Shown: positions 2,886 to 50,434 of the stretch, piece by piece
How positions within the stretch are numbered: the first letter of the stretch is position 1
How the letters are laid out: each line of letters starts with the position of its first letter
Source of the DNA: Marsupella aquatica
Lineage: Eukaryota > Plantae > Marchantiophyta
Assembly (NCBI GenBank): GCA_973895155.1
Contig: OZ316899.1
Span: forward strand, 12,339,834-12,403,833
Direction: 5' to 3'
DNA length: 64,000 bases
Position numbers and translations under genes: made by a program
The notes under the pieces: generated by a model
Databases searched by the model: none
Told to the model about the DNA's origin: nothing
The model's input: the letters and a program-made list of their open reading frames with translations, nothing else

Positions 2886-3983
2886 AAGAGTAAAACTAGA
2901 TCTCCTGTCTAGATACTAACTGATTTCAGCTTTTTGTCGTATTGTTGCTTCATGGTGTTCTGCCTATGTTCTACTCTTTATGCTGAAATCATTCTTTCGT
3001 CTTCTAAGGCCTCTAATTTATATTCTTGCTCTCTTAGAGTTTCTTCCTGTGACAATCTCTCCTTAATTGTAACTTGAAATGTGTCACGTCGTCAGCCTAG
3101 GCCTTAACCCAAGCTTTGGCTTAGACAGGCATATCCTCCGTTAGTATGAGGGTTCGGACAAGGAGGGACGCACAGACTGCACCTAACTCCCGTAATCTAG
3201 CGCTAAGTGCGACTACTATCACTTACATACACTTCCTAGGTATGATTTGTGTTCCGCTGCCGGAACATACCTTAGTCGATAGTGGGATCGACCTCGGCTT
3301 AGGGCTTCTAAGCCTTTGTGCTATCCGCCTTCAATCCGGATCCAATGATACGAGCATTCAACCCGGACTCATAGCCACTCCTCCACGACCTGCAGTCCAT
3401 GCACGGCTCGGGTAGTGTGCTCGGCCAAGCATTGGCACCCATACATGAGATTAATACATGAACACACACACACAAGCATACAATCTTGGTTTACACGAAG
3501 GAAATAATGGGAAAGGATTTTACTTCACAAGTCAACACACACTTATACTTGGTTGACCCAATAGCTCTTGAATGAACAGGTCCAAGGCCGAGGGGCGCAC
3601 ACTACAACGGAGCCCGACTCCGCACTCGCCCAACAAGCTTAGTCGTACCCCCTCCCCTCGGTACTCTTTCACTCACAGAGATCAGGACTCCCCGCACATA
3701 CTGCGGATGTCCAACTCTGAGACTAAACCCCCCCCCCCCCTTGGCTCTACCAAGGGGTGCACTAAATACTAAGGGCTGAGGACCGGAGTGGCCTTGTGCC
3801 CAAATATTCACTAACTAAGATCCTAACTAAGCTGGCTGTGAGGCCGGAAAAGGGTTTGTCTTATTAGAAGATTCTAATCTACGCAGGCCAGACAGCATGG
3901 CAACACCGCTTTAACTAGGGCAGGCGCTTGTCCCTATAGCCTGATTTAGCTACACCTAACTCTATTTTAATCTTACTCCACCG

Positions 3984-6527
3984 CTAATGCCTGGCACGCT
4001 TGCCAGAGCCGCCCGAGTGGGAGCGGCTATCCCGCTGCCTTTTGAGTCTGTCGGCGTCCTGCTTGAGTAGCTCTACCTGGTCCAACATAGATTTGTTCTC
4101 TTGCTTTGCCGTTTCCTCCGCGGCTTCCTGGGATGCCTCCTCTAGTTGCTGTGCATCGCTCGTCAGCTTATCCACCAACTGGGCTTCTTTGTGGCTTCTC
4201 CTTGGATCCGTGCCACTTCCGCCTTCAGGGCGTCTATCTTGGTTGCGTCTTGTTGGGACCGAGCATCGGCCTCCTCTACATCCTTTTGTCAGCTAACAAC
4301 TTGCCCCTTCAAACCGTCAATCTGGGTCCGAAGCAATCTTGGAGTCTTTTCCAAACCCGACCTACTCTGCTAAGGCTGCCTGGGCCCTGGCCTTGGCAAC
4401 TTGATCCTCCGTGGCTGATACCTGAGGTCATAGTTGTTGGAGTTGAGTCTCTAGGGCCACCACTTTGTCCTTCAGGTACGCTGACTCAACCCGGTACCGC
4501 TCTATTCTTTGCATCATCTCAGCCTGCGCATGTCCTGCCTTTACAACGGCAACCAACTCCTAGTTGAAGAAGTAGGCCACCTTCCGTGCCATGTATTCCC
4601 CGGTATCCCGTGCAATTTGTTGAGAGAAATCTCCCAACAACCCGTTCAGAAATGTGCTTGGCGCAAAGAGTTTCGGGTGGTCCAGACTATGCCCTCTAGA
4701 TTTGGGCAAGGACAGACCCCAGCCCGTGCGGGAGTTGGAGTGGAAACGTCCAGCCCTTGAGGTAAGTTGGTCGAAGGGGCTGGTTTCACTGGAGCTGGGC
4801 GGTTCTCCTGCATAGCCGTGGGGGGTGGCGGGATCTCCTTGGCCACCGTAGTGTCGGGTTTGGGTCTGGTCTCAGCCGGCCCGACATCAATCGCGTTGAT
4901 CTGGTTAATTGCATCCAGGGTCGCAATAACTGTGTCTACGGGTATGCTTGGCGGGGCGGTAGCAACTGGTTGCGGGGCCGGGGTAGCAGGGCTTGCGGCT
5001 GCCAGGCTTTGGGCCTCGGCTGCGGTCGCTTCTCCTGAGCTGGGAATACCTACTTTGATGGGGTCAATTCAGTCTCATTGCTACGGGGAAGGCTTCGGCG
5101 GTTGAAACGGGCATACCACTCGATGATGATCTCGATGTGGCTTGCAAAGTACGCCTTTTCGCCAAGGTATAAGGTCTTCCTTCTCCGCTCCATCTCCTCA
5201 TGGAACTTCTTGACAAAGAAGGATGCCCACCTCCTAGGCCAAAAGTTATCTACTTGTATGACCTGGGCGGCGGATATTTCACCCCGTGGTTCCATCATGT
5301 GGAGGGCATACCGCTGGAACTCTAGGCGTTCTGCTACCTCCGGGATGAGGCACGTCCTCATCAAGAATCTGTTGTCCACTGCTCCCTTGGTCGGGAAGCT
5401 AGAAGACTGGTATTTAGCTCCCTTGCCCCCAGGAGCCCGCAACTCTACCCGGTTTATTCCTTCAGGTAGCCCTAAAATCATCTTCAAACGTGCCTCATTG
5501 AGACACATCACTCTCCTGTGCGCTCGGGTTTGTTGGCGGGCCTCGTCAAAGTTCTCTCAATGAACTGCGTCATATCCTGCCCGTAGTACCTGCTTCCATT
5601 CCAAGGGAGAGAGGCGAGATGCTCAAACCCTTGAGTCTTCAGGTAGCATGCATGCTTGGGGTGGAGGATGTTCTTGTGAACATTCTCCCCCATGCAATGC
5701 ATGGCCAGGTTGGCCATTGCAACCGTGGCCAAAGGCAGCCCGGATACAGCTACGGGTTCCTTTCTCTTCCTAACCTGAGATTGATTCCCGGGGTGGCTAG
5801 AAGAGGGGCACATCTCCCCATCCTCCCAGTTGGGTGGCGGTAGCGCTACCGCCGTGCGTATTGGTGCGGGGGCCGCTACAGTTACTGTGTTATCCCCTCG
5901 GGCTTGTTGGAGTGGCACCGGGTTGCTTGGAGCATGCTGATTTGTATCCCGCGGCCGTCGGTTCAGGGGAGGGTGAGCCTCCTCGTCTTCAGAGCTAATA
6001 TTTACCGCATTTACCATGGATCGCACCCGAAGAGGTGGTTCAACAGGTGGTGGAGATTGGCTTGACTGAGGCCGAGGTGGTGGTGGTGCAAGTACCAACG
6101 GATTGGCGCCAATTGCAGCTAGGGGAGGTGCCATTAGATTCAAGAAGTCCCTGGGGAAGTCGAGTGTCATTAAGATAGGAGTCTCGGTTGTTTGGGCAGG
6201 GCCAAACTGACAATCTATGGATGCTTGAACTCGAGCGAGGATATGGTCGTAGTGGTGCGGCTGCAAGTCTATTGTGCCCAGGAGACGATAAACCCTGTCC
6301 GAAAGCCAAAGGAGCGCTTCCCAAAAACCAACGTACTTCTTGTCGACAAAGAAGTACTCGCTGATTTTGTTGACTCGGCAAAGCTCACTCTGGAATGGGA
6401 GGTCAAAATTTCCGTTATAGTGATTATGGCCGGCTAAGTGAATGGCTCTCTCATAAGCTTGTTTGGTCTCGTTCGGCGCGGCTTGACCTTGGCTAAGTGA
6501 CTTCCCACGGATAGGAATTGCAGCCAA
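3984..6527 (-). pseudogene. Decayed LTR-encoded protein of family B (PMD-like domain + C-terminal coiled coil), homologue of the family-A LTR ORF
   Basis: ORFs 5508-6527, 5050-5511, 4646-4846 and 3984-4178 are linked by frameshifts and stops. GFEHLASLPW, ILGLPEG and RTCLIPEVAERLEFQRYALHMMEPRGEISAAQV align to GLEAFVRLPW, VFGLPMG and NTCTNPHIGEMIDFLRVTMHCNLPRAEIGKAQV. The true start codon is uncertain. Confidence 0.75.
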
Positions 6528-6662
6528 AATTGAAGGGCCAAACTAGACAATATCGTGATAAACACCCAGGAGTGACGGTGGGCGACCAAGGATGGACAAA
6601 GTGGCTGAGATCAAAGCTGGCGCGCGGAATGGAGTGTGGGTGTAATACGAGAGAATGGCCCT

Positions 6663-6671
6663 CCTTTTATA
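6663..6671 (-). promoter_or_regulatory. Candidate TATA box of the family-B LTR
   Basis: TATAAAAGG on the minus strand, ~355 nt from the LTR 5' end and ~135 nt upstream of the ORF. Confidence 0.5.
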
Positions 6672-9600
6672 CTCTGAGAGCGCATCATTTGACAGGCCCC
6701 TCCTCCTTCCCTATAGGTCAAGCTTTTCACGCTCATAGTGTATTGGCCACTCGCAGGTCCGGTTCAGAGCGTGTCAGTGGCCGCCTCCGAGAATTTGTTA
6801 TACAGACCCGAAGGGTCCCTTACACGCTTGTAACCCGGAAGTACAAATGGCGCTCCGCCGCCATCCCGAACATAAATGCACCTTATTAACTAATGATTCC
6901 CTAGTCATAAGTACTACCTAATTAGTGTTGTTATGCTAATAACTATGGCCTACGATGCCCCTAATGCGCGTGTTAAGCATGGGCTAGGCCAAATCAATCA
7001 TTAACCGTCGTGCTGGCGGCGTCACAAAATGTAGGAATCTCAAGTTGTATGGGTACTAAAGCTTCCTATCCGAAGGTTAAGAAGAAAGGTGTGTGGCTGA
7101 TGGTTGACTTGTAGGCTAAATTGTAAGCAAAGACAGCAGCAAAAAATTTGTCATCCCAATCGATTTTGTTTTGGGCCACTGTCTTGTTTTAAGATCTTAG
7201 CAATGATGCCATTTGCTTGTTTGGTCAGCCCATTTTCTTTTGGGTGGTAAGGGGTGGTAGGCCAATGACATACTAGGTACTACTCATTTAAACGGTTGAC
7301 TATATCATTCAAGAAATGAGGTCCTCTATCACTCACTAATTCTAGGGGTGCTCCATACCTGGTAAAGATTTGCTCATATACAAAACAAGTCGTGGTGACG
7401 TCATCATCCTTTGGCGTTGGCCTGGCAGACAGACTTGGCATTTGAACAGCCTAGCAGAGGACTTGGCGTTTGAAATGCTTCTCAATGGCATACCTTCGCG
7501 GATTGGTATCAGCGAGAAAAGCTGCAAGATGGCTTCCTATCAAAAGAAATTGATACCAAAACCGGACAGCTGAACTGGAAAGGATAGGGCCGGTCATATG
7601 GCAAGGTGTGTTGGGTTGCTAAGGGGGAGATGGAGGAGCTGATAAGTTGCAAAACTCAACTACCTTAACACTTAGCTCCAACGTCGTTGACTCCAACGCC
7701 AAGCTCCCTTATGGTCTAGGCCCGGATAGGCCATTTGGGGAGGACTTAGCATGAGGAGACTTGTGGGCAATGGAATGTGGCACTAGCGAAGGCAAGGCGC
7801 CAAGATGGTGACACACACTAAGGACTTTGACTAGCTGAGAGCTGGTTGGGTCAAGGGGAAAGGGGCGGGCTCAAGGTTGACCGTCCGGACTCTCGGACAG
7901 ACTTTGAGTTCAAAGGGCTTGAGTGAGAGCTCCTCTTGGGCCCAAGGCCAATGGAGTTGACGCCATGAGCAACGGATGCTTGGGGCGCGAGTTATGGCCT
8001 GATCCAGGTTTGGCTGATTGGGGGCCCCGAGCGGCAATGAGACCTGAGGGCCTAGGCATGAGCACTGGATTGGCCTGGTCATAACGGGCTAAGGCACTCC
8101 GCTTGCAGACGCCTAACTAGGAAGTTATGGGCGTTGCTAGTTGGTGGTGCACCCAGACATGCGTGATAGAATCCGGGTTGTGGCCCAAAAAGTTGAGGAC
8201 CAAAGTTTGTTTGAGGGTGGAAGGTCCCCAGAATCATATATGAGGGGAGTGGTGTCTCCCTGGGGGCTAAGGGCGAGCCAAAATTGTGAGCCGCAGCGGT
8301 TGCGACACTAAGGGAAAACGCCAAATTAACTGAAACAACGATAACTTCCCAACGGAAAGTCTGTTGGAAGACTCCTTGGATGCTTGGAAAGCTCTCAAGG
8401 AGGACTACATCCTCCTGAGCTTATCTGGGTCTGGGGGCGCCATAGGTTCTCAAGGTTTGCGGATGTTATCATGCCCGCGTGCCAAATCCTGCCGAAACAG
8501 TAGCCAAGCTGAGTTCAGTCTCTCAAGGGAGCTTGCATTGGGGAGACAAGGCCAAGTAGGCATGGAGGTTAAGTTCCAAGGGCACTTGGCCCCTAGAACA
8601 TCAGCAGGGCAAGAACCGGGAGTTGGTTGCTAGAGTCGGGGCCATTCTGGTCCCGATGCGTTGGGACAATCTTGGGACAAGCTACGCTATTTGGGCCATG
8701 AACATGTCTTGGGGCCAGGGCGGTCAGTTGGTGATGGATAGGTACTATGACGGGGTCCTCGACCCCGAAGACCAACATTAACTGTCTACCGAAGGTGTTT
8801 TTTGGTAAATAAACCAGATGTGAATTTTCTTTAATTTTCATTTCCTTAGCACAACTACGTTAATTATGTTATTATGAGTCATGGCGGGCCAAGGGGCAGA
8901 TGAGGGAATAAAATTAGGCATCTCAAGGGGATACCACCAATTAATATTTGGAGACCCCGACAGTTTTCTAGGCCCCGATGTAATATTGGGGAGCAGTTAG
9001 TTTTTTTTTGGGGGGGGCGGCTATGGGGACCCTTTGTGGAGGCCCATTTTAGTGGGGAGGTTTTTAAGGGGGGTTTAAAACCCCTCTATTGGAGGACGGG
9101 AGGCGCGAGCCAAAGCCCACCTATGGAGCGAGCCGGGAGTCGAGCCCTACATAGGGCCGCAAGCCGGGGGGCATTATGTGTCCTGGGAGGCGCCAGAGCC
9201 CACGAGAGGGAGCCGGGGCAGGTGGGCGCAGCAGCCGCAAGCAGGAGGGGCAAGCCATAAGGGCAGTCGCGAGCTGGGAGGTCAGTGAGTTAAGGAGCTG
9301 GGAGGCAGGAGGCAGGTGGCAGCCGGATAGGCATTAAGGCTCCCGAGAGCCAGGAGCAAGAAAGGGCAAGAGGGAGGGGGGAGACGGGCACAAACCTCTA
9401 CACTATGAGCCAGGAGCAGGAGGAGCGCGCCAGGTGGAAGCCATGCAGGAGGGCCGCGAGCCAGGAGGGTGCGGGCCCAAGGTGGGAAGTACGCGTGTGT
9501 GTGTGAGGGGGTTAAATCCCCCAATCCTGGGGGGTAGGTACAGGGCCGGTGGGAAGCAGGGCAAACCATCCCCCCCGGGGAAGCAGCTAGACAAGGGCGA

Positions 9601-11057: not shown

Positions 11058-14000
11058 TGTGGTGCGTCCCATGGCGCCCCATACCCAAGAAACTCCCCCG
11101 CACAAGCCGATTCCCGTAGGTTTCGTCCTCGACGAGGCCGTTTCCACGGCTTAGCGGCATGGGACGCTGCTAATCTCTTCTACTACTACAATTAACATCT
11201 TACACACATATACTGGACAGATCCTTCATCGGGTCATGAGATACTTAGCCGGCCTATTCTAGGCCCTCCCTTGTATTCCTCTCCTGGTCTTCCATTAGGT
11301 ATGTTTGGATTCCGCTGCCGGAATGATCCCCAATTTGGCTTGGTTAAGCCACTAAGACCTCTCTCAGCTCGACACATCCATCTCTCACTCCCTTGCTACC
11401 TGCCCCGGACCGAGTCAACTCTTCATCGGCCTGACTGGGTCCACCCTCGGCTTCGGCCTCAGCATCGGCCACGGCCTCCTCGACATGTTTTAGTAGAGGA
11501 TCTGGTACCTCGGTTTCATTATTGGTTGTCCCGGCCTCGGCCTTGCCATCCCCACTTCCTAGGACTGGTGGATCCACCGCCGTGCCGATGTCGGAGGTTG
11601 GTGCCGGGTTTATCTTCTCGGTCACAACAGCTTGAGAAGCCGTATAACTCCCAGACCTAGAAGGTTTTCGCTTCTTCTTCTTCCCTATTTCAACAGCCAG
11701 TTCCTTCCCCTTGCCACTTACCTTCGACACCAGGGTGAGTGTCTCGGCTTGTCCTTCGGCCAATACTACCCCTGGTAACTGGGTTGCCCCAATTGGAGTT
11801 GGACCGGATGAAGCCAAGCATTTAAATACTGCGGCTTGTTTCTTCAGTCGCTCCGTTTGGTTGTCGGCCCGCCGCTGTAGGTTCTCCATCTTCCTCGTGA
11901 TTTCCTCCAACTCCTCCTGGGTCTCGTCCAGGTCCTTGCGTGCCTCCTCCAGCTCCTTTCTGGCTTCCTCCAATTCTTTCTTTACGGTAGCCCTCTCCTC
12001 CTGGGTTGCTCTTAGCTCCTTGTCCAGCTCTGCTACGACCACAGACTCCATCTTATTCATCTTGGCATAAGTCTGGTCGAGCTGGTCGTCCTTTTCATGC
12101 AGGTCGGCCTTGAAGCTGGCCGTCAGGGATGCAAGCTCCTGCTGCAGCGCAATAATCCCTTGATAGGATTTCCCTAACTCTGCTTCCTTCTGCTCAAGGG
12201 CTCCGCGGATATCTTCGAGCTCTCCTTTCAATGCCCTCTCCCTTCTCTGAGTCTCCGCCATGGCCCGGTTGTTGGCGGTTAAGTGGGCCTCCTCTGCGTC
12301 CCTTAGCTCCCGCTTCCATTTCTCTCTTTCCTTGACTACGCCGGCCAACTCTCCTTGGGTCCGAGTCAGTTTATCTTTGATAATCTGATTGTCAGACTGA
12401 GCGGTATCCAACTGCCCCTGCATGATGTTTAGCTCATGTCGCTTAATCCGCAGCTCATCTTGGGCTTTCTTGGCCGCCTGCAGGACTTCCACCTCGGCTT
12501 CCTTCTCCCTAAGCCGTCGGATGACCTCGTCCTTCTTGCTTCTCTCCAAAGCCACCGCTTCTTCTAATCGGTGCTTCTCCAACCTCTCCCTCTGGAAGAA
12601 AAGTCCCTGCTCCAACTCCTCCCCAAAGATGCTGAGCGCCAGGTCCCCACACATCTCCCTGTACTCCATGGCTCTATCCTTAGCATAGGTGGAGTAAGTA
12701 GAAGTCATCGGCAACAACCACCTCGGCCTCTATTCCCAAGCCGCCTTGTGGATTTCTTCTACGGTGGCAAGAGGGTTGCTTCTTTTTTTGGCAAGCCGCT
12801 TGATGTCCTCCGGCCAATCTCCTCCTAGTAAATCTTTCTCCCTAGCCAGGGCTGCCCTCTCTTCCTCCCTGAGTCGCTCCTGAAAGTCTTGTGCCGTCTG
12901 CTTTATGCCATCAAAGCTCGGGGGAGCAACCTCTAGTGGGGGAGACTCGGGGCTATTCTGCTGGGTGGGGTCCCCTTGAACTACTCTTGGAAGCGTGGGG
13001 ATAAATTGGCCACAGGTCCTTACTCCTGGAACATGATGATCCGACCCATAGCCGGAGTTATCATTGCTGTAGTCCTCCACCGCCTCCTCCACTCCTTGGA
13101 CTCCCTCCTTCCCCCTCTGTTCCCCTGGTCCTGCCGTGAAACCGGCCTCACAGATCACGGGCCCTTGTTCCTCCTCTCGGTTCCAGGCTGTCCTCTCCCT
13201 CTGCTCTCCTGGGGAAGGAGCCTTAGGCTGCTCTGCCTCCGATTCGGGGTTGAGGCTCCCATATACATTCGCACTCCCGGCTTGTGTTCCGGCCTCCTTC
13301 TCTCCTTCTCTCCTTGGCTCCGGTAAAGGGGTTTTCCCTCCTGAGTCGGCTTAGGCCGGCCTCTGGGGCAATGTCCTGTACCGGTGCCGTTGCCGTTGCC
13401 GTTGCCGTTGCTGGTGCCGTTCTCTCCTTCTCCAGCATTTTCAGCAGATTCTGCATGCCTGATTGCTGCATCGGCAAGTCCTCTTTCCTTGGCCGAAACA
13501 CCTGCTCTATCATAGGACTGACAGGCTGGTTGGGCTCTTTTGTTGTCGGCCTCTGCTCCGGAACCTCCTCCGATGCCCTTGCCGATAGGGGAAGTACTGG
13601 GGCAAAGATTTGACTTCTGGCATACCGGCACAACAGCGGCATGTGATAGCCAAGCCGGGACACGCTTCCCACGCCGACCACTTGCTGTTCCTCCTTCAAG
13701 ATTTTCTTCAGTTGGTTGAGGAGGTACCCGTTGTAATCCCGGCTTGGGTCTGGCCTTTCTGCCAGGTAGACCTAAGGCTTGCCGATCTCTGCCCTCGGCA
13801 AGTTACAATGCATGGTCACTCGCAAGAAATCGATCATCTCTCCGATGTGCGGGTTGGTGCAGGTGTTCCGGAAGAAGCCATTCTTCATTGATGGTCCTGG
13901 GAACAACCGGAACTCCTTGTCAGGTAAGGTCTTCCTGGTATCAACCTTGGTCTTATTACCCATCAGCAAGCCAAATACCTCGGCAATCACCTGGGGAGTG

Positions 14001-15134
14001 AGATAGAAATCCTTCCCATACACCCTTGTGGAATTGGTCTCGGGTTCCCATGATCCCACGAATTCTAATAAGTCTGAGTCCGGCACCTCCGGCTTCAGCC
14101 ATGGTAATCTTACGAAGGCTTCCAAGCTGGATCCGGCCATGAAGCCCTGGTACTTCTTGGTCTGCATGGCCGTAAAACATGCATCTTCCTCCCGTGCAAA
14201 ATGTAATTGCACTTCCTCTGGTAGGGTCGCCGCCCAGCCTTTCCAGGTGTCATCATTTGTTGGAATGGCATTGATGGGATTGACCTCATCCTCTTCGGCT
14301 TCTCCCTGCCTCCTGTTCTGCTGCTCTACTGGTTTCCTTGGTGCCGCCGACCTCGTTCTTTTTGCCGGGGTGGCCTCTTCGTTGTTGTTTCCTTTCCTCT
14401 TCATCTCGGCTGTCGTGGATGTTTCTCCTAGCACAGTTACCTTTGTCCACTCTTCCGTGCTACCCTTCAACTCCCAGTGCGCGTCGTTGCAGCGGTTGAT
14501 GGCTTCCCGAATGCCGACGATTCTCTCTTCGCAAAACTGAAGGTCATCGAGCTGATTGGCAGTAGGAGTCCACAAGAACTGGGCCTTGATGAGTTCTCCT
14601 CCTAAGAAGGTAGACTTTTGCAGCTCCCACAGTCGAGCGAGCTCCTGCCGTTCTCGAGCTACTCTCTCTGATTCTTCGTCCTCGTAAGTCCCAATGTACT
14701 CAGTTGCCCGTTCGAACAGGCATCCCCAAAAATGTGCCACTTGATTGATGTTGCTCATACCCTCCTTGACTCGATCGTTGGTATCTGTTCCCACCCAGAG
14801 TGCTTGCCTAAGTAGCTGATTGTATTTGGCCTCCATAGTCGTCTGCTCAGTTCGTGCTTGCAAATGAGCCACTATTCCTCGCGAGCGGTCCTTACCCCTC
14901 TCCTCCTCTGGTCTTCCCTTCCGTTGGTCACCCCTAGCCGTTGACGCTTAGCGCGCCCTAACCCTAATCGTGTTCTCTCCCCCAACGTCCTTACTTCCGG
15001 CCTCGGCCCGGGTTCCATAGTCACCCTTAATTGTTTATATTTTCCTTGTCTTGTTACTATACTAAGGTGTTTCCAGGGTACACTCCTGCTTTTACCATGT
15101 AAACCGGCCTAGTGATTCCTGGCTAGGCATCACA
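11058..15134 (-). mobile_element. Solo LTR, family A, 4077 bp, with a ~640-bp internal deletion at ~11399
   Basis: Termini TGTGGTGCG...GCATCACA; TSD CCCCT at 11053-11057 and 15135-15139; the host LTR ORF resumes after the TSD. Confidence 0.93.
11344..15018 (-). pseudogene. Family-A LTR ORF, disrupted copy
   Basis: ORFs 13772-14872, 13223-13699, 12730-13158 and 11344-12717 are colinear with the 56536 protein; several frameshifts and stops. Confidence 0.9.
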
Positions 15135-19804: not shown

Positions 19805-20464
19805 TCAAATCCAAGATATGTGGCTCCTAGCAGGAGTGCCTAGTGTAGGGTCAATGTCATGGTCAGGACAGTAAAACATCCCCTTCTTGGGCTGCCCATG
19901 CGCTGAGTGATCCCAAATTGTTCGATCATCGGCAAATCCCCTCTGCTGGATAAACAGCAGGCAGTCCTTGTGCCATGCCTTAGGACACCTCATGCACTGA
20001 ACCAAAAAGCCATTAGCCCCATCATTGGGTCCCTGTCCACAAGTAAGACAAATATGGAGTCCACGTGATGTTGTGCCAGGAACCAAACACTGCCGACAGT
20101 AAAACCGGGCATAGAGAGGGTCTGGACATTTTCTTACCTCTTCACCAATTTTTCCAGACACATGGCACTTAAAGCAAGAATGTTCCTCATTCTTGCAATC
20201 AACACAAAGCCATTCTCCAACATGGCCATCAGCCAGGGATATAGTTGGGCATAGCCATTGCTAACCCAAAGGACAGGAAACATTCTTATGGAAATGTCGG
20301 TGACAAGGCCCATCACAAACAATGAGATCCCCTCCCTCATCACAAATCGCACATACATGTGGACTATTCTGGTTAATCTCAATGTTTGAATATAAGGACA
20401 ATTGAGGTGCTTGAGAGGATTCACCTCTGCAATGATTCATGGCCTTCTGCTTATTGCGAGCCAT
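19805..20464 (-). pseudogene. EDM2/NSD-type tandem PHD-finger cassette with one in-frame stop (20261-20263)
   Basis: VCAICDEGGDLIVCDGPCHRHFH, WLCVDCKNEEHSCFKC, QCMRCPKAWHKDCL and YCPDHDIDPTLGTPARSHI; the last resembles the end of the plant EDM2 PHD region. ORFs 20261-20476 and 19805-20161 are in the same frame. Confidence 0.8.
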
Positions 20465-30232: not shown

Positions 30233-30240
30233 AGGGGGAG
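30233..30240 (+). other. Copia polypurine tract
   Basis: AGGGGGAG abuts the 3' LTR. Confidence 0.85.
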
Positions 30241-35783: not shown

Positions 35784-38700
35784 TGTGGTGCGTCCCATGG
35801 CACCCCAAACCCAAGAAACCTCCCGCACAAGCCGATTCCCGCAGGTTTCGTCCTCGACGAGGCCGTTTCCGCGGATTAGCGGCATGGGACGTTGCTAATC
35901 TCCTCTACTACTACGATTAACATTTTACACACATATACTGGACAGATCCTTCATCGGGTCATGAGATACTTAGCCGGCCTATTCTAGGCCCTCCCTTGTA
36001 TTCCTCTCCTGGTCTTCCATTAGGTATGTTTGGATTCCGCCGCCGGAATGATCCCCAATTTGGCTTGGTTAAGCCGCTAAGACCTCTCTCAGCTCAACAC
36101 ATCCATCTCTCACTCCCTTGCTACTTCCCTTCATTGATGTGGGCACTCTTCACACAAGTTAATGCGACACACAAATAGCAAAATGACTCCTTCTGACTGA
36201 GTTATACCATGCACTTGCCATACAAACAGTACATCTCATACACAAGCTCTGCGAACTAAGCCGTGAGGCCAACTCTATTCAGTTCTTAGGTATGAGGAAA
36301 CATGAATATACACAAGGGTCACTGTATAACTAACCGAGAGCTTCTCTTACTACTTGATCCCAGCCTTGCTGGTGCAACTAGAAACTTGCTAAAGAAGAGG
36401 CCCTGAACTCCCCGCAGCCCAGGTACTTATCTTGGTTGTGGATCTGCCTGATTCCTTGCAGCGTAAGCCTAATCTACTTATTGTAATCTACCTATGTACA
36501 GCGAGGCAGGAGCACAAGTGTCGCCCTCACTCGTGGATCCGCAATCCCACTAATCTAAGTGTCAGGGCCGTCTCCTGGTCCTGATCCTTAGTCTAAACTT
36601 GGAGATCAGTGCCCGCCCTGCCCACTCACGCCTCCTACCTCCACGTCCGCCCTCCCTAAAAGGGACGGCTCCCTTACACCGTCACGACCCCGGTGGCTGG
36701 TCCTCAATGGACGCCCCCAACGCTTCCTCCGCAACCACTGTTGTTGGTCCGTCCTCTGACAGATTACCTGCCCCGGACCGAGACAACTCTTCATCGGACT
36801 GACTGGGTCCACCCTCGGCTTCGGCCTCATCATCGGCCACGGCCTCCCCGACATGTTCTAGTGGAGGATCTGGTACCTCGGCTTCATTACTAGTTGTCCC
36901 GGCCTCGGCCTTGCCATCCCCACTTCCTAGGACTGGTGGATCCACCGTCGTGCCGATGTCGGAGGTTGGTGCCGGGTTTATCTTCTCGGTCACAACGGCT
37001 TGAGAAGCCGTATAACTCTTAGACCTAGAAGGTTTTCGCTTTTTCTTCTTCCCTATTTCGACAGCCAGTTCCTTCCCCTTGCCACTTACCTCCGGCACCG
37101 GGGTGAGTGTCTCGGCTTGTCCTTTGGCCAATACTACCCCTGGTAACTGGGTTGCCCCAATTGGAGTTGGACCTGATGAAGCCAAGCATTTAAATACTGC
37201 GGCTTGTTTCTTTAGCCGCTCCGTTTGGTTGTCGGCCCGCCGCTGTAGGTTCTCCATCTTCCTCGTGATTTCCTCAAACTCCTCCTGGGTCTCGTCCAGG
37301 TCCTTGCACGCCTCCTCCAGCTCCTTTTTGGCTTCCTCCAATTCTTTCTTTAAGGTAGCCCTCTCCTCCTGGGTTTCTCTTAGCTCCTTGTCGAGCTTTG
37401 CTATGACCACAGACTCCATCTTATTCATCTTGGCATAAGTCTGGTCGAGCTGGTCGTCCTTTTCACGTAGGTTGGCCTTGAAGCTGGCCGTCAGGGACGC
37501 AAGCTCCTACTGCAGCGCAATAATCCCTTGATAGGATTTCCCTAACTCTGCTTCCTTCTGCTCAAGGGCTTCGCGGATATCTTCGAGCTCTCCTTTCAAC
37601 GCCCTCTCCCTTCTCTGAGTCTCCGCCATGGCCCGGTTGTTGGCAGTTAAGTGGGCCTCCTCTGTGTCCCTTAGCTCCCGCTTCCATTTCTCTCTTTCCT
37701 TGACTACGCCGGCCAACTCTCCTTGGGTCCGAGTCAGTTTATCTTTGATAATCTGATTGTCAGACTGAGTGGTATCCAACTGCCCCTGCATGATGTTTAG
37801 CTCATGCCGCTTAATCCGCAGCTCATCTTGGGCTTTCTTGGCCGCCTGCAGGACTTCCACCTTGGCTTCCTTCTCCCTAAGCCGTCGGATGTTGCCGTTG
37901 TTGGTACCGTTGCCGTTGCTGGTACCGTTCTCTCCTTCTCCATCATTTTCAGCAGATTCTGCATGCCTGATTGCTGCATCGGCAAGTCTTCTTTCCTTGG
38001 CCAAAACACCTGCTCGATTGTAGGACTGACAGGCTGGTTGGGCTCTTCTGTTGCCGGCCTCTGCTCCGGAACCTCCTCCGATGCCCTTGCCGATAGGGGA
38101 AGTACTGGGGCAAAGATTTGACTTCTGGCATACGGGCACAACAGCGGCATGTGATAGCCAAGCCGGGACACGTTTCCCACGCCGATCACCTGTTGTTCCT
38201 CCTTCAAGATTTTCTTCAGTTGGTTGAGGAGGTACCCGTTGTAATCCCAGCTTGGGTCTGGCCTTTCTGCCAGGTAGACCTGAGCCTTGCCGATCTCTGT
38301 CCTCGGCAAGTTACAATGCATGGTCACCCACAAGAAATCGATCATCTCTCCGATGTGTGGGTTGGTGCAGGTGTTCCGAAAGAAGCCATTCTTCGTTGAT
38401 GGTCCTGGGAACGACCGGAACTCCTTGTCAGGTAAGGTCTTCCTGGTATCAACCTTGGTCTTATTACCCATCGGCAAGCCAAACACCTCGGCAATCACCC
38501 GGGGAGTGAGATAGAAATCCTTCCCATACACCCTCGTGGAATTGGTCTCGGGTTCCCATGATCCCACGAATTCTAATAAGTCTGAGTCTGGCAGCTTCGG
38601 CTTCAGCCATGGTAATCTTACAAAGGCTTCCAAGCCGGATCCGGCCATGAAGCCCTGGTACTTCTTGGTCTGCATGGCCGTAAAGCATGCATCCTCCTCC

Positions 38701-39628
38701 CTTGCAAAATGTAATTGCACTTCCTCTGGTAGGGTCACCGCCCAGCCTTTCCAGGTGTCATCATTTGTTGGAATAATATTGATGGGATCGACCTCCTCCT
38801 CTTTGGCTTCTCCTTGCCTCCTGTTCTGTTGCTCTGCTGGTTTCCTTGGTGTCGCCGACCTCGTTCTTTTTGTCGGGGTGGCCTCTTTGTTGTTGTTTCC
38901 TTTCCTCTTCATCTCGGCTGCCGTGGATGTTTCTCCTAGCATAGTTACCTTTGTCCACCCTTCCGTGCTACCCTTCAACTCCCAGTGCGCGTCGTTGCAG
39001 CGGTTGATGGCTTCCCAAATGCCGACGATTCTGTCTTCGCAAAACAGAAGGTCATCGAGCTGATTGGCAGTAGGAGTCCACAAGAACTCGGCCTTGATGA
39101 GTTCTCCTCCTAAGAAGGCAGACTTTTGCAGCTCCCACAATCAAGCGAGCTCCTGCCGTTCTCGAGCTGCTCTCTTCGATTCTTTGTCCTTGTAAGTCCC
39201 AATGTACTCAGTTGCCCATTCGAACAGGCATCCCCAAAAATGTGCCGCTTGATTGACGTTGCTCATACCCTCCTTGACTCGATCGTTGGTATCTGTTCCC
39301 ACCCAGAGTGCTTGCCTAAGCAGCTGATAGTATTTGGCCTCCCGTAGTCGTCTGCTCAGTTCGTGCTTGCAAATGAGCCACTATTCCTCGCGAGCGGTCC
39401 TTACCCCTCTCCTCCTCTGGTCTTCCCTCCCGTTGGTCACCCCTAGCCGCCGACGCTTAGCGCGTCCTAACCCTAATCGTGTTCTCTCCCCCGGCGTCCT
39501 TACTTCCGGCCTCGGCCCAAGTTCCATAGTCACCCTTAATTGTTTATATTTTCCTTGTCTTGTTACTATACTAAGGTGTTTCCAGGGTACACTCCTGCTT
39601 TTACCATGATTCCTGGCTAGGCATCACA
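35784..39628 (-). repeat. 3' LTR, 3845 bp (~840-bp deletion at ~37891, 15-bp deletion at ~39608)
   Basis: Colinear with 45734-50434; TG..CA ends; PPT adjacent. Confidence 0.95.
36682..39527 (-). pseudogene. Family-A LTR ORF in the 3' LTR, deleted and disrupted
   Basis: ORFs 37797-39140, 37507-38139 (part) and 36682-37428. Confidence 0.9.
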
Positions 39629-42600
39629 TAGCTCCCCACTTAATTGTGAAGCGTCCTCGCGAACAACTTCATCTTCGTCCATATAGTATTTCTTGAGGCG
39701 GTCGTAATGGATGCAAACTGGGTAATACAAGATCTCCTGTGTGAATACTAACTAGTTTCAACCTTTTATCATACCGCTGCTTCATGGTATTCTGTCTATA
39801 TTCTACTGTCTCGGCTGAAATCATTCTTGCCTCCTCTAAAGATTCTAACCTATATTCTCACTCCTTTAGGCTTTCTTCCTGTGAGGTTCTCCCCTCAATT
39901 GTAACTTGAAATGTAGGGATCTCAAGTTGCATGGGTACCAGGGCTTCCTGTCCAAAGGTTAAGAAAAAAGGTGTATGACCGGTAGTGGATTTATAGGCTA
40001 AATTGTAAGCAAAAATAGCAGCAAACAATTTATCATCCCAATCGATTTTGTTCTGGGCTACAGTTTTGTTTAATATTTTTCCTATAATTCCATTGGCTCG
40101 TTCTGTCAACCCGTTTGCCTTTGGGTGGTAGGGAGTAGTAGGCCTATGTCTAACTAAATACTGCTCATTTAAACGACTAATTATATCATTCAGAAAATGG
40201 GTTCCTCTATCACTAACTAATTCTATGGGTGCGCCATACCTGGTGAAGATCTGCTCATACATAAATCGAGCCGTAGTAATTGCATCATCCTTTGTTGCCG
40301 GCCTGGCCTCTACCCACTTAGTTGCATAATCCGTGGCCAAGATTATGTACTTGTTTCTTTGAGGATGGGTCAATGGTTTCAGGGGTCCGATGTAATCAAT
40401 ACCCCACTTCTCAAATGGTGCCAGAGGTAGAATAGGGTGCAGTGGATGTCTTGTGGACGCCCTTGATCCTCCTGCTCGTTGACAAGGATCGCATTGTTTG
40501 ATAAATTTATAGACATCTTTGTGCAAGGTGGGCCACCAGTAACCGGCATTTAATATTTTTTTAGAAGTGGTTACTGGAGCGAAATGTCCCCCGGCCTCCT
40601 CTCCATGCATAGCTCGTAAGACTTGTTTTACCTCTCCCTCCTCCAAACACCTTTGAATCGTGCCACTGATTCCATGCCTGTGTAGCATGCCCTTGATGCA
40701 CTGATACTGTCTGAACTTCCGCAAAAAGACTGCGGCTTGCTCTCGGCTTAGCCCGGGGTATAATCTGGAAGTGCTGAGAAATTGTAAAATCTCAGGGTAC
40801 CATGTATCAGCTATTTCCACAACAAATAGCTCCTCGTTGGGAAATCGATCGTCGATGCAATCCATGGCAGGTTCACCTGTGATCCTTGAAAAGAAGTCGG
40901 CATTGGCGTGTAGCTTTCCCGACTTGATTTTTGGCTTGTAGTCAAACTCCTGTAATAGCAAAATCCATCTTGCTACCTTGCTTGTAAGGTCCGACTTATT
41001 TACTAGGTACTTTAAACTTTCATGATCAGTATGAAAGATTACCTTGTACCCTAGCAGATAATGCCTAAACTTTTTACATGAATAAATGACTCCTAATGCT
41101 TCTCTTTTTGTGGTGGAGTAGTTTTGTTCGGCATCGGCAAGCTGGCGGCTTGCAAAGTATATAGGATGGTCCCTTCCTTTCTCATCTAACTGACTTAGTA
41201 CTGAGCCGATACAGAAGCCTGAGACATCTCCAAAGACATGAAAATCCTTGTTCCAGTCTGGTGCTATCATGACTGGGGCCTCTACTAACATCTGCTTTAA
41301 TTCCACCACCGCTGTCACTCGCTCTGGTGTGGGTTCGAAGTCTGCACCTGCTTTGAGCATGTTGGTTAATGGTAAAGCTAGCTTGGCAAAATCCTTGATG
41401 AACCGGCGATAATAACCAATGCAACCCAAGAAGGATCTCACATCCTTTATGTTCTTAGGTTGCATGATATCTAGCCACACTGCTAGCTTACCCTTATCAA
41501 TCTCAATGCCCTTTTTTGATACCTTGTGACCTAGTAGCACACCTTCTGTTACGCCAAAAAAACATTTATCTGGGTGTAACTTGAGGCCTACCTCTCTGCA
41601 TCTCATGAAGGTTTTCCTAAGGTATTTAGCATGTTTTGATGCCTTCCCAAATACTGCAAAGTCATCAATGAAGATTTCCATGAATTTTCTCAAGTAGTCA
41701 TGAAAAATGTTCACCATTAATCGTTGGAACATAGCTGGTGCGTTACAAAGTCCAAACGGCATACGATTGAAGACATAGATCCCCCATTCCGTGATGAAGG
41801 GTGTCTTGATTTGGTCCTCCTGCCTAATCCTGATTTGGTTATAACCAGAGTATCCATCCATGAATGAGTATAGTTCATAACTGGCTACCATGTCTAGTAC
41901 CATATCAGTAAACGGTAAAGGAAAATGGTCTTTTAACGTAGCCTCATTCAACTTCCTGTACTCCTGACAAACCCGGATCTTTGGTTTACCATCGGGTCCA
42001 GCTTTCTTGGGAACTATCACAATTGGAGACACCCAGTCTAAATGCAGGACTGGAGTGATGAATCCGCCTTCCACTAGTTTATCGATTTCAGCCTTGACCA
42101 TCAAAGAATACTTAGGGTTCATCCTTCGAATCGGTTGTCGAAATGATTTGGCCCCTAACATGAGATCGATTCGGTGTTCTCCTAGTTTTGGGTCTACTCC
42201 CTTCAAATCTTGGTGACTCCATGCGAACACATCCTGAAATTCAATTAGTAATTCACTGATCTCTTTCTCAAGCTCAGGTGCTAGATCCCGCCCCAAGTTC
42301 AGTTCCCTTCCTTCTCCTAAGTCTAGCTTCCGGTATTGCCGTGCTTGGATCATATTAATCTGCTTCTTCAAATTCGGGTCCAACTCGACTTCCAGCCTCT
42401 CCAGTCTCATACCTCCATAGACTGGAATCTCGGCAGTACTAGCCGAGTTGGTTGACTTAATTTCTCCCTGGTTCTCAACAGACTGTTCCCTTGCCGTTCT
42501 GCTTGGTTTTGAATTGGTTGTTAGCTCCCCGTCCTGACTCGGCTCTGGTTTCTTCCCGTGCATCTGATCTATTCCTGCTTCCTGAGGGTCAGGCCATCGT

Positions 42601-42767
42601 GCTCTTCCGGCTTCTAGTAGGGCCTCAATTTGTTCTGCCCTTGTGATCGGCTTGTAAGCCGATCCCTTGGTATTTAATTTGTTGCCGATGATAGACGGCG
42701 TTGTGGATCCTGTCGGCTCTGCCACAACGCTCGAGAAAAATCCACTATCTCTGATGTAGCTCCCCAC
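39617..42767 (-). pseudogene. pol: Gypsy pol (RT, RNase H, integrase) with a premature stop at 39858 and a deletion in the integrase C-terminus
   Basis: MPFGLCNAP, FIDD, YFASRQL..NYSTT, H..GGHF..CDPCQ, WGIDYIGP, SDRGTHF, ANGLTER. Confidence 0.95.
39631..39641 (-). other. Gypsy polypurine tract
   Basis: AAGTGGGGAGC lies 2 nt before the 3' LTR; identical at 62410-62420. Confidence 0.8.
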
Positions 42768-45697
42768 CTAGCCGTTTCATCTAGCCGATCCGCCTCTTGT
42801 GTCTCCTCCGGAATTGAAGCTAAAAATGTTGACTCTATGGCAAAGCAATCCTCGGTCTCTTCTTCACCTTCCTCCAGGTTACTCTCCATAGGTTCGTGCC
42901 ATAGTCCGTTGGGGGGCACTTCTGGTCCAAATACATTTTCTTCGGTTAGGTCAGTGAGGCATTCTAGCCAACGTACTTCATCGGCTGACTCCAGTCCACT
43001 GTCGTACCCATCTACTTCCCTGATGCTTTTTCTGCGGTCATCCTTGGTGTCCCAGGATACCGTGATAGATGGGGTCCCAAAGGTGAACTCCTTCTTACCC
43101 CAATCTTGTATTACTTTGGCTAGGTACAGCCATGGCCTGCCAATTAATAGCCGGAACGACGTAGGGTTTACCGGCTTCATTACTACATAGTTAATGCTAA
43201 AGAAGATTCCTCCTATCTCAGTCTTGATGTCGGTTAACATTCCCGTGGGAATGACCTGATACCCATTGGCCATGTTTAACACTCTTCCAGTCATCTCCGG
43301 CGTTAGACCCCATCCTTTTGCTGTTGAATCAATCATAATACATACCCCGGATCCTCCATCAATGGGTACTCGCAATAATATTTCTCCTTGAATCATTAAT
43401 GGTAATGCTGGGGCTCCTTCATCTTCTTCTATCATCAGCACATCGGATTTGGTTGCTACCTTGGGTAATCTCGACTTGCCGAGAATTGCCTTCCTTAACT
43501 GCTTCCAAAAGTACGGGCTATTTTTCAATAGTTGACCTACGGTTGCCGAGACTCTAGTTCTAGCACATCTTTAGCCAGGTCATAGGGAACTATCGGCTTC
43601 TCCTCTGGCGGTGTCTTCATCTTGGCTTCGGCCTATTTTTCCACACTGGTCTCCACAGCCATTGGATCCTCCGAAGCAAACAACGCTTTTGCTCATTTCA
43701 CATCCTTGGCTATAGCTTCGGTATTCTCCAGGGTTTCTAATTCTCGCAATTGTTCCTTAACACTAGCCATAATAGAGGGGTAGAACAACTTAGGGTGATC
43801 TCGATTGAAGTTGCTGTCCTGTGAAGGATTGGGCTCACTGGTGGGCTCATGGCTTACCTGTGTTGCCGGCGCCTTTCCTTCCCCTTCTGTTGATGTTGAC
43901 GAAGAGTCGATTCTTTCTTCCTTATCCTTCCCTTTATTTTTGGCCAGCCCATCCCACCTTTCCTTCCTTCTGGTAGATCGAGTAGAGACCCGGTAGCAAT
44001 CATGATCCAAATCCTCCTCTGAGAAGGTTGATAGGGCCTCGGCCTCATCATCGGATGGTCCAAACTCTGCTTTGGCATCCGTTTGCCATCCAAGTTCGAT
44101 GTGGTTGATTTGAACTCCTCCGGGGGTAGTACCTGGTGGTAAAACCTTGACTGGCAAGAGCTTATGATTTGCGGCCAGGCCTGCCAACCAAGTAGGACAT
44201 TGTCCTAGCATGTGACCCTCCTGTCGGCATCCCATACATAGCTGAGCTGGTTGTCCATCACCTTGTTTGCGTGCATTCGGGCATTCTCTAGCAAAATGAC
44301 CAGGTTGACCACAATTATAGCATGCCGCAAATCTTTGCACATTCGGCCTAGGAGGTACTGACGGATTCTGAATAATCCGAGGATACATCTCTCCCGGATT
44401 GTTCCTTAATCCTAACCAGAGAGATGCAGGTCTGTTGGATAAGTCTCGTGCTCCAGTCTCACTGATGCCGAAAACACTATCAGCGGCATCCCCTAAAAAG
44501 TACTCTACTTCTCCCTGACATGGTCTAGCCTTAGCCACATGCCGAACATGACTAGTATTAAGTTTAGGACATGCATCTTTATGGTGTCCAGTTTTATAAC
44601 ATAAGGCACACCATACAGAGCTATCCTCCTGTACTACCTTCTTCTTCGGTTTTACCTCTACTATTATAGCCTTAAGCTGCTCGGTAAGGGCTACGATGTT
44701 ATCTGGTGTTTTAGCCTCTAGTTTGACTTTCATCTTTCCCCTCCTTCTGCCCTTCCTTGTCCTAGTTTTCTTCTTCAGAACTAGAAGATGACTCACTCTT
44801 GCTACTCCCACTATCCGAGCTTGAGTTATCACTTCTTGACTTCTTAGAATGTTTATTTTTCTTCTCTTTTTTCTTATGGGGTGATCCTTCCTCCGATGAG
44901 GAACTCTCAGACTTAAGCTATTTCTTTCGGCTTGTGATATCTGCATTAATGTATAATTGAATATCCTTAATTGCCTCGGCTAAAGTCTTTGGGTTCTCCT
45001 TCCTAATTGCAAAACTCATCTTCTGTGGCAAAGCATTCACTAACCATTGAAGTTGCATACCTTCAGATGCATTGGTCTATGTACGTCTTACCAGCTTTTG
45101 GAAGCGTTGCAAGAACTTCTTGAAGGATTTGTTCTCCTTGAAACGAAGTCGTCCCAACTTCAGCACTGCTAACTCTGAGGTTCCAATGGGTCCAAACTCC
45201 TTGACAAATAGAGATCTGAAAGTATACCAGATGGCTTGATCTTCTACGTCCAATGCTCTGTACCAAGGCCTAGCCTCACCTTTGAACAGGCCGGGAAGAA
45301 TTTGCATCTTGATGGCTGATTCTCCATTTGCTGCAGCGGTTCCTTTGAAGTCATCCAACCATTCATCCGGATCCTCATCTCCTCTTCCATGAAAGGCCTT
45401 GTAATGAATACGCGACCGTTGGCTCAGTCTGGTCCCTAGCCTCTCGTCTGGTCGTGCCTCTGGTTCCCCCATGTCGGTTGGAGACTCACTTCTCCTTACC
45501 GACCCTTCTTTTGGTATGTCTTCTTCGATGCCACTTTCAGTTACGGAGCTACTAGCTCTTTTTGCCCCTCTCAGTCGCTGTGTATGATGCCACTTGGCGA
45601 GCTGCTGCAGACGAGCTCTCTCCCATTGAATCGCTCTTTCCTCTCTCAGCGTAGTTTCAGTCATTACCCACGCTTCCTTCCTAACTTCATATCTCAC
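42674..45697 (-). pseudogene. gag: Gypsy gag (capsid-like region, three CCHC knuckles) and aspartic protease, frameshifted
   Basis: FHGRGDEDPDEWL..GEARPWY; CALCYKTGHHKDAC, CYNCGQPGHFAREC, CMGCRQEGHMLGQC; protease PIDGGS..LLIGRPWL. Confidence 0.9.
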
Positions 45698-45710
45698 GGC
45701 TTAAGAGCTG

Positions 45711-45729
45711 CCCCCTCCATCTAGCGCCA
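45711..45729 (-). other. Primer binding site, probably tRNA-Asn
   Basis: TGGCGCTAGATGGAGGGG begins 4 nt after the 5' LTR; near-complement of the plant tRNA-Asn 3' end as I recall it. Confidence 0.7.
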
Positions 45730-45733
45730 AAAA

Positions 45734-48700: not shown

Positions 48701-50434
48701 GTTGCCGTTGCTGGTGCCGTTCTCTCATTCTCCAACATTTTCAGCAGATTCTGCATGCCTGATTGCTGCATCGGCAAGTCTTCTTTCCTTGGCCGAAACA
48801 CCTGCTCGATCATAGGACTGACAGGCTGGTTGGGCTCTTCTGTTGCCGGCCTCTGCTCCAAAACCTCCTCCGGTGCCCTTGCCGATAGGGGAATTACTGG
48901 GGCAAAGATTTGACTTCTGGCATACCGGCACAACAGCGGCATGTGATAGCCAAGCCGGGACACGCTTCCCACGCCGATCACCTGCTGTTCCTCCTTCAAG
49001 ATTTTCTTTAGTTGGTTGAGGAGGTACCCGTTGTAATCCCGGCTTGGGTCTGGCCTTTCTGCCAGGTAGACCTGAGCCTTGCCGATCTCTGCCCTCGGCA
49101 AGTTACAATGCATGGTCATCCACAAGAAATCGATCATCTCTCTGATGTGCGGGTTGGTGCAGGTGTTCCGGAAGAAGCCATTCTTTGTTGATGGTCCTGG
49201 GAACGACTGGAACTCCTTGTCAGGTAAGGTCTTCCTGGTATCAACCTTGGTCTTATTACCCATCGGCAAGCCAAACACCTCGGCAATCACCCGGGGAGTG
49301 AGATAGAAATCCTTCCCATACACCCTGGTGGAATTGGTCTCGGGTTCCCATGATCCCACGAATTCTAATAAGTCTGAGTCTGGCACCTCCGGCTTCAGCC
49401 ATGGTAATCTTACGAAGGCTTCCAAGCCGGATCCGGCCATGAAGCCCTGGTACTTCTTGGTCTGCATGGCCGTAAAGCATGCATCCTCCTCCCGTGCAAA
49501 TGTAATTGCACTTCCTCTGGTAGGGTCGCCGCCCAGCCTTTCTAGGTGTCATCATTTGTTGGAATGGCATTGATGGGATCGACCTCCTCCTCTTTGGCTT
49601 CTCCTTGCCTCCTGTTCTGTTGCTCTGCTGGTTTCCTTGGTGCCGCCGACCTCGTTCTTTTTGCCGGGGTGGCCTCTTTGTTGTTGTTTCCTTTCCTCTT
49701 CATCTTGGCTGCCGTGGATGTTTCTCCTAGCACAGTTGCCTTTGTCCACCCTTCCGTGCTACCCTTCAACTCCCAGTGCGCGTCGTTGCAGCGGTTGATG
49801 GCTTCCCGAATGCCGACAATTCTGTCTTCGCAAAACAAAAGGTCATCGAGTTGATTGGCAGTAGGAGTCCACAAGAACTCGGCCTTGATGAGTTCTCCTC
49901 CTAAGAAGGCAAACTTCTGCAGCTCCCACAGTTGAGCGAGCTCCTGCCATTCTCGAGCTGCTCTCTCCGATTCTTCATCCTCGTAAGTCCCAATGTACTC
50001 AGTTGCCCGTTCGAACAGGCATCCCCAAAAATGTGCCGCTTGATTGACGTTGCTCATACCCTCCTTGACTCGATCGTTGGTATCTGTTCCCACCTAGAGT
50101 GCTTGCCTAAGCAGCTGACAGTATTTGGCCTCCCGTAGTTGTCTGCTCAATTCGTGCTTGCAAACGAGCCACTATTCCTCGCGAGCGGTCCTTACCCCTC
50201 TCCTCCTCTAGTCTTCCCTCCCGTTGATCATCCCTATCCACCAACGCTTAGCACGCCCTAACCCTAATTGTGTTCTCTCCCCCGGCGTCCTTACTTCCGG
50301 CCTCGGCCCGGGTTCCATAGTCACCCTTAATTGTTTATATTTTCCTTGTCTTGTTACTATACTAAGGTGTTTCCAGGGTACACTCCTGCTTTTACCATGT
50401 AAACCGGCCTAGTGATTCCTGGCTGGGCATCACA
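45734..50434 (-). repeat. 5' LTR, 4701 bp
   Basis: Minus strand TGTGATGCC...GCACCATA (terminal CA mutated to TA), followed by the PBS. Confidence 0.95.
46633..50318 (-). pseudogene. Family-A LTR ORF in the 5' LTR, full length with a few stops and a frameshift
   Basis: ORFs 49542-50093, 47887-49467 and 46633-47874; the ATG at 50318 corresponds to 56536. Confidence 0.92.

Follow-up and report, generated by a model that had tools for sequence, protein, structure and literature searches.

Can a plant retrotransposon keep a gene of its own inside its long terminal repeats (LTRs), and could such a gene have been carried there for a long time? The question is raised by a 64,000-nucleotide stretch of contig OZ316899.1 from the liverwort Marsupella aquatica, which we refer to as the window. 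It contains two families of gene-bearing repeats: family A, a Ty3/gypsy LTR retrotransposon, and family B, represented by one unit at 3082..7026 on the minus strand. The initial annotation had read the B unit as a solo LTR carrying a decayed homologue of the gene found in family-A LTRs, and the gene-in-LTR layout as an old, conserved trait of a lineage. We find that the A and B genes are, as far as sequence comparison can tell, almost certainly homologous, and that they may encode chromatin factors resembling the VANC proteins of DNA transposons and the plant mobile domain (PMD).

The B unit is 3945 bp long, with TG at 3082 and CA at 7026, and its terminal inverted repeats match at 12 of 15 positions. 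The 5-bp target-site duplication AAATG stands on both sides of it, at 3077..3081 and 7027..7031. Self-comparison of the window showed that the unit splits a minus-strand piece of family-A integrase, which occupies 7027..7426 and resumes at 2889-3081; segments 2889-3082 and 7027-7426 together match the uninterrupted integrase at 39722-40307. Data on further copies come from contigs of four public sequencing runs (two organism codes, two studies). In all four, the contigs cover 30 of 30 bins of the unit and also join 3076 to 7027, leaving out 3950 bases; this is exactly the unit plus one duplication, and the joint is thus an empty insertion site. The ends and duplication that had been proposed are therefore confirmed. 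Contig cover climbs abruptly at 3082, the 3' end of the unit, which was inspected closely (the 5' end was included in the empty-site and coverage analyses), and the loose contig ends before 3082 agree at merely 0.42-0.51, so the flanks differ among copies. Contig depth was also greater over the B core than over the flanks, an observation that we did not use because depth cannot rank parts. The B unit is a genuine element that occurs in many copies and ends at a fixed point. It contains neither gag-pol nor a second repeat, and we consider it very probably a solo LTR on the grounds of its TG..CA ends, its 5-bp duplication, its many copies with one fixed end and diverse flanks, and an orientation and layout like those of bona fide family-A LTRs. 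It is likely the solo LTR of a second Ty3/gypsy family, with a dead copy of the gene.

That gene, on the minus strand at 3984..6556, would encode about 850 amino acids. It has at least six frame breaks and four in-frame stops, and its presumed start lacks an ATG. When the breaks are read through with X, it aligns with an intact 906-residue relative, P0065, over residues 60-847 at 27% identity (E 3.7e-64). Four parts can be told apart: a conserved N-terminal domain of about 100 residues, which belongs to no Pfam family and is split by a frame break (6240..6556); a core domain of about 195 residues, with a frame break near 5560 (5107..5693); a Pro/Ala-rich linker (4695..5017); and a helical hinge followed by a coiled-coil-like tail with a terminal basic motif (3987..4690), which resembles the tail of P0065 (score 89, shuffle maximum 66). 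The Pro-rich linker and coiled coil had been noted correctly at the outset. The description of a decayed homologous protein also stood, except that its extent had been understated: the gene extends from about 6556 down to 3984 and includes a second, N-terminal domain in common with family A. Other B copies have one-base insertions at 5017, 4691-4694 and 4183-4190, which are frame breaks of the present copy, so the damage is largely private to it. The near-fixed differences between this copy and the others show no codon bias (9, 9 and 10 of 28 listed sites), as is expected for a single decaying copy. The gene is dead in this copy.

The homology of the two genes rests first on the core. With X at the frame break, the B core and the A protein can be aligned over 184 columns, of which 43 are identical (23%), and score 139, against 37 ± 5 and a maximum of 62 in 1000 shuffles; this bears out the colinear match of about 180 residues in the initial annotation, all four motif pairs of which fall in register. 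At the protein level tblastn gives an E-value of 2e-6. We also searched 1.84 billion proteins with a profile that combined one B piece with four from A, and removed the circularity of this design by rebuilding the profile from A and the 15 hits found by A alone. The A-seeded profile scores B at 107.8 bits (E 4.7e-26), so that the profile alignment suggested earlier turned out to be significant. The N-terminal domain provides a second line of evidence: a profile of the B piece and six relatives finds four family-A copies (independent E-values, iE, of 1.7e-7 to 4.1e-6), and one built from four relatives only finds B (iE 1.7e-4). Between the C-terminal regions of A and B, similarity is within the range of shuffles (45 of 500 reach the score), and the tails thus have only their architecture in common.

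Family A provides the complete context that such a gene can occupy. Sequence and domain matches delimit a full-length Ty3/gypsy element at 35784..50434 (minus strand), flanked by the duplication CTCAC, with two gene-bearing LTRs around gag-pol. Its 5' LTR (45734..50434, 4.7 kb) is followed by TGGCGCTAG, which we take to be the primer-binding site from its TGG start and position, no tRNA having been matched, and then by gag. Its 3' LTR (35784..39628) has an internal deletion that leaves 3.8 kb, is 96.8% identical to the 5' LTR and has a purine tract ahead of it. Between the repeats lie gag, protease, reverse transcriptase, RNase H and integrase, in that order; the protease, which gave no Pfam hit, is assigned from its motif. 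The integrase frame crosses the purine tract (39620-39645) and has its stop codon 9 nt within the 3' LTR, and family A is therefore without a 3' internal region. Pol fills the internal region, and a domain scan gave no hit to a chromodomain or an extra RNase H. There are also two solo family-A LTRs, one at 56421..61096 (plus strand, duplication ACAAG) and one at 11058..15134 (minus strand, duplication CCCCT), the latter nested within another A LTR.

The first of these solo LTRs has an open frame of 1121 codons, in which the gene starts at Met 56797 and is open to 59829. Between A subfamilies, which are 87% identical, 19 of 27 and 18 of 24 changes in the core and 30 of 43 in the coil are at third positions; the first 300 nt (12 of 48) and, likewise, the last 800 nt are without this bias. 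Met 56797 aligns with the starts of the relatives, and together with the third-position pattern this places the beginning of the gene about 376 nt inside the LTR. To judge from these substitutions, the A gene is under purifying selection. The frame resumes for 115 codons after the stop at 59829 (59830-60177, plus strand), so the A gene may exceed the open frame of this copy.

At the DNA level, the two families have little in common. A blastn comparison (word size 7) of the B unit with the rest of the window returned a single match below E 0.2, of 36 nt near the 3' end (E 0.001). It corresponds to a short hairpin-like motif at 3232..3265 (minus strand) that B has in common with the 3' end of family-A LTRs and that is borderline, its score of 34 being equalled by the best of 200 shuffles. 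The 5' ends look alike by eye over the first 9-16 bases only, and shuffled sequences resemble A and the stretch 7427-9670 as closely as the B 5' region does. Apart from the borderline 3' match, the earlier statement that A and B show no evident nucleotide similarity beyond the first bases is upheld.

Structure prediction gives an indication of what the gene encodes. An AlphaFold2 model of the A core, built on a 53-row alignment, has a pLDDT of 94.3 and a pTM of 0.90. In a Foldseek search its top match was VANC21 bound to DNA (TM 0.50, E 0.48), and the second row had a TM of 0.16. VIA-align, run against 48,161 solved chains, again placed VANC21 first (Z 8.2, root-mean-square deviation (rmsd) 3.9, 194 of 201 residues), followed by a chain at Z 2.0. 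The model of the B piece (pLDDT 93.8) also has the VANC21 chain first and in register (Z 5.4, rmsd 3.8, 141 of 150 residues aligned), with the second-best chain at Z 4.0 over 65 aligned residues. The predicted order of secondary-structure elements is the same in the two models. Despite the moderate scores, we regard the gap to the next chains and the full coverage as convincing, and the core probably has a fold like that of the VANC21 DNA-binding domain. Among Atlas neighbours of two relatives (scores 0.88-0.90), the only named families shown were DUF1985 (13% of members) and PMD (20%). Some other candidates were set aside: a Foldseek match to viral models (best E 0.012, TM 0.35, rmsd 14.9) was rejected, the three sequence matches in PDB were coiled-coil hits (E 0.6-2.3), and the Pfam hits to the tail (ATG16, WEMBL and others) were below the cut-off and of a generic coiled-coil kind. 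A weak Transposase_32 match occurs in 2 of 53 family members.

VANC21 is encoded by VANDAL21, a Mutator-like transposon of Arabidopsis, and contains a DUF1985 domain (PDB 9LNK/9LNJ). Like the LTR protein, it is a transposon-encoded accessory protein, and it is the best structural match across the whole core. It also combines a conserved domain, variable regions and a coiled coil, as the LTR protein does, and it has been modelled as a coiled-coil oligomer (PMC13547354). VANC binds short motifs, which form arrays, and demethylates its own family (PMC5735166). The differences are considerable. VANC21 comes from a dicot DNA transposon and the LTR protein from a Ty3/gypsy LTR retrotransposon, with 7-11% identity between them; and the LTR protein has an extra N-terminal domain and a function that is a prediction, no arrays of target motifs having been found in its elements. 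A second point of comparison is PMD (PF10536), found as PMD-A in Ogre/Gypsy elements and in the host proteins MAIN and MAIL1. The PMD of MAIN/MAIL1 and the DUF1985 domain of VANC are reported to resemble each other (PMC13547354; 10.1101/2024.09.27.615353), and the two domains are described as structurally allied (10.1101/2024.09.27.615353). PMD too occurs as an extra Ty3/gypsy gene, being carried by 57% of Ogre elements (PMC6317226). The Atlas neighbours of two relatives of the LTR protein include PMD clusters, a possible sign of structural similarity; neither the core nor the family members match PF10536 with a hidden Markov model (HMM). PMDs of Gypsy elements are known from angiosperms, and the accessible text of the reports does not state a position inside the LTR (PMC5418596, PMC6317226).

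The layout of the B unit allows a mechanism to be proposed. A putative promoter of the LTR gene, the TATA box TATAAAAG at 6664..6671 (minus strand), begins at 6671, 355 nt inside the B 5' end and about 110 nt ahead of the presumed start at 6556; that a TATA box precedes the ORF had been pointed out from the start. TATA-like words in B occur there and at about 3547. Recombination between two LTRs would have left the solo B copy, and the gene would be driven by a promoter close to the LTR 5' end. Its mRNA would encode the N-terminal domain, a VANC/PMD-like DNA-binding core, the linker and the coiled coil. The protein could multimerise through the coiled coil, enter the nucleus and act in trans on its own family, binding the element's own DNA and countering silencing. 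As to the origin of the layout, the plus-strand primer site probably came to adjoin the end of pol, and an extra open reading frame (ORF) at the 3' side would then have been absorbed into U3, like sag in mouse mammary tumour virus (MMTV). We favour a gene in U3, with the genomic RNA started by another promoter, close to the LTR 3' end, over the alternative of a gene in R or U5. In LTR replication, placement in U3 keeps the minus-strand strong-stop DNA short and does not put gag behind a 3-kb gene. A gene that lies wholly within the repeat is present in two copies per element, and solo LTRs would remain a source of it while they are young. Taken whole, with the solo LTR, the fold and the anti-silencing role, LTR-borne VANC/PMD-like chromatin factors are our best reading, one with about equal chances of being right or wrong; for the anti-silencing role taken by itself, which leans on the predicted models, our confidence is likewise evenly divided.

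Several observations weigh against this reading. As regards the fold, the Foldseek E-value is merely 0.48 and the identity to VANC21 only 7-11%; a Z of 8.2 is at the edge of what the tool calls common and 5.4 is below it; and the A and B models rest on one alignment and are thus not independent. Pfam gave nothing above the cut-off for the core, PF09331 (DUF1985) was not among the families shown for the 53 members, for which E-values up to 5 were admitted, and a sequence search of PDB did not find VANC21. As regards function, the net charge of the core ranges from -11 to +21 (A +1, B +8), and exact 6-10-mer counts in A and B gave no sign of VANC-type target arrays, being within the null range; the best case of a repeated word was matched in 2 of 40 null runs, a figure that is uncorrected for multiple tests and comes from a decayed copy in the case of B. 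For host PMD proteins, a role in promoting silencing is also on record (PMC5418596). The A copy with the longest frame has no TATA box; in the three others, TATAAAC stands about 95 nt from the end. As regards the solo LTR, no B sequence beside gag-pol was found in the window, the B end pattern had 0 matches in viral contigs, and the consensus of loose ends at 3080-3082 was not readable as a primer-binding site.

The strongest of the competing explanations accepts the solo LTR and the fold and gives the protein a different job, such as directing integration towards repeat-rich chromatin, controlling transcription from the LTR or acting as a chaperone while the very long LTR is reverse-transcribed. 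This has an appreciable, though minor, share of the probability. The exact-word search found no motif arrays in A or B, the elements lack a chromodomain yet are nested in one another, and a common fold proves no function. What speaks for anti-silencing instead is that the only solved structure that matches belongs to a DNA-binding protein with which a transposon counters silencing, and that host PMD-C proteins oppose Polycomb silencing (10.1101/2024.09.27.615353).

The next question is whether the position of the gene, and not just the gene, is old. The combined A and B profile had 52 protein hits with E-values of 0.001 or less; these came from the full HMMER scan alone, the word-based protein searches having returned no relatives (weak evidence, as they covered restricted lengths). 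Of the 30 representatives that were looked up, 12 have an organism name, and all of these are liverwort proteins (10 Calypogeia fissa, such as CAM6082161.1 and CAM6090539.1, and 2 Riccia sorocarpa). A quick FastTree tree of 39 cores of at least 140 residues, rooted at the midpoint and excluding shorter hits and the repetitive P0020, puts the A and B proteins about 2.7 substitutions per site apart, with poorly supported deep nodes, and each has its own closer relatives elsewhere in the tree. The proposal of an old, conserved gene-in-LTR trait is supported as to the age of the gene, since this distance and the hits in Calypogeia and Riccia speak against a one-off capture; the position within the LTR is known for A only and is presumed for B. 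Scans of metagenome contigs gave 102 and 592 pattern matches, with 0 confirmed. For P0002, P0003, P0013, P0017 and P0065, the longest contigs measure 3.6-4.8 kb, near LTR size (library type unspecified). The two Riccia sorocarpa proteins, P0047 and P0053, are the members with the weak Transposase_32 match. Both are annotated as fused to a DDE_Tnp_4 domain, which may reflect faulty gene models or a branch of the family that belongs to DNA transposons.

An old gene need not have been inherited in its LTR position from a single event. A 3' extra ORF could have entered the A and B LTRs separately through shifts of the primer site, or could have been swapped between lineages, which is possible and, in our estimate, improbable. 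A and B fall in different parts of the tree, with the low support of deep nodes and the midpoint root to be borne in mind, and the two Riccia fusions mean that relatives need not all be in LTRs. A possible third family, C, would have at least 2 kb of non-coding DNA upstream of the gene, compared with 376 nt in A and 470 nt in B. Against separate entry, both LTRs follow the same plan of a short 5' leader, the gene and a 3' tail of about 0.9 kb, and they have similar first bases and the borderline 3' motif in common.

It is unlikely that B is instead a gene cassette that stands on its own and has ends like those of an LTR, or an LTR belonging to a non-autonomous element, mobilised by the integrase of another family. 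In favour of this, the 64-kb window holds no second B copy or B internal region, and the junction with a primer-binding site could not be read. The interpretation as a solo LTR remains the best account of the ends, the duplication and the copies, with no B element with gag-pol seen in the window. The cassette is opposed by family A, in which a unit of the same kind occurs both solo and paired around gag-pol. Each of the four runs, moreover, lists one contig in which the B end continues into a short flank and whose depth exceeds that of the contigs with long flanks; this hints weakly that several copies have such a junction in common. Finally, chance or composition as the source of the A-B similarity, for which only the low identity of 23% could be cited, is refuted by the shuffles (0 of 1000 come near), the A-seeded profile, the second common domain and the same order of secondary-structure elements, and can be practically dismissed.

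Genes within LTRs and extra genes in plant retrotransposons have each been described before. A parallel in position is sag of MMTV, where the whole ORF lies within the LTR (U3) and additional upstream U3 promoters can transcribe it; it encodes an unrelated protein, a membrane superantigen of an animal retrovirus (PMC12789967). Unlike in MMTV, the LTRs described here measure 3.9-4.7 kb and have genes of 850 to over 1000 codons. The ORF1/env-like gene of Athila and the antisense ORFs of Retand and Grande are likewise conserved extra genes under selection, the family-A gene being in gag-pol sense; they are described from the internal region, in most cases from the part that separates pol from the 3' LTR (PMC7264820, PMC6317226). 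Family A differs from them in having no 3' internal region and in carrying its gene inside both LTRs and in solo LTRs. In the absence of hits to a chromodomain or an extra RNase H, family A is like Phygy and Selgy and like the Tat Z non-chromoviruses that lack an additional RNase H (aRH); Phygy and Selgy, compared here by description, are reported as short and without extra ORFs, unlike family A (PMC6317226, PMC10508981).

Each of the ingredients is known on its own: extra ORFs, PMD in Gypsy elements, VANC, and a gene placed in U3. For a PMD/VANC-like gene inside plant LTRs we found no report in the literature searched, which covered a minority of subscription papers and no supplements; the new point is a VANC-like predicted fold encoded inside an LTR. 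Sequence-specific anti-silencing is established for VANDAL DNA transposons, and an equivalent in LTR retrotransposons has been posed as an open question (PMC12844716). An LTR-borne family with VANC21 as its best structural match offers a concrete candidate. Since the B copy is dead, the value lies in the gene family. LTR-LTR recombination is the host's usual route of removal, and a gene within the LTR survives it, so that solo LTRs would not be inert. The origin of PMD has been left open between Gypsy-first and host-first (PMC5418596), and VANC is held to derive from captured MAIN (PMC13547354). A liverwort retrotransposon family with a VANC/PMD-like fold would add a third, deeper branch to the problem. 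It is tempting, and on the whole doubtful, to go further and propose that liverwort Ty3/gypsy LTRs hold old anti-silencing genes of VANC/PMD fold, that their solo LTRs are self-contained cassettes and that these folds predate the split of liverworts and vascular plants. If this were true, each solo LTR would keep the family active after the host had deleted gag-pol, and retrotransposons would be pointed to as the source of host MAIN/MAIL1 and of VANC.

The possible C gene mentioned above is a Met-initiated piece of about 55 codons at 7427..7597 (minus strand), which may be the N-terminus of a third family of the LTR gene, cut off against the family-A integrase to which it is joined at 7426. 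Compared with the N-terminus of B it reaches a score of 80 (shuffles 21 ± 4, maximum 49), and it is not significant with the profile of relatives (iE 2.1) or with P0065. At least 2 kb of unrelated non-coding DNA lies upstream of it, up to 9670.

The remainder of the window is also rich in mobile elements. At 1-3081 and 61649-64000, pieces of family-A LTR and integrase are oddly ordered (LTR gene at 2095-2887 adjoining integrase; a rearranged LTR at 61649-62407), which suggests recombination or deletion. A Copia element at 24367-33946 has an intact polyprotein of 1528 codons (25324-29910) and adjoins an array of repeats of about 580 bp, one unit of which is also found upstream of the element. 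A CACTA transposase (Transposase_21, 17512-18933), PHD fingers (19805-20260) and a piece of Ulp1/C48 protease (50436-51062) are probably parts of DNA transposons. A partly self-complementary 34-bp tandem array occupies 51986-52783, and a related, degenerate array lies 2.4 kb away at 55088-55584.

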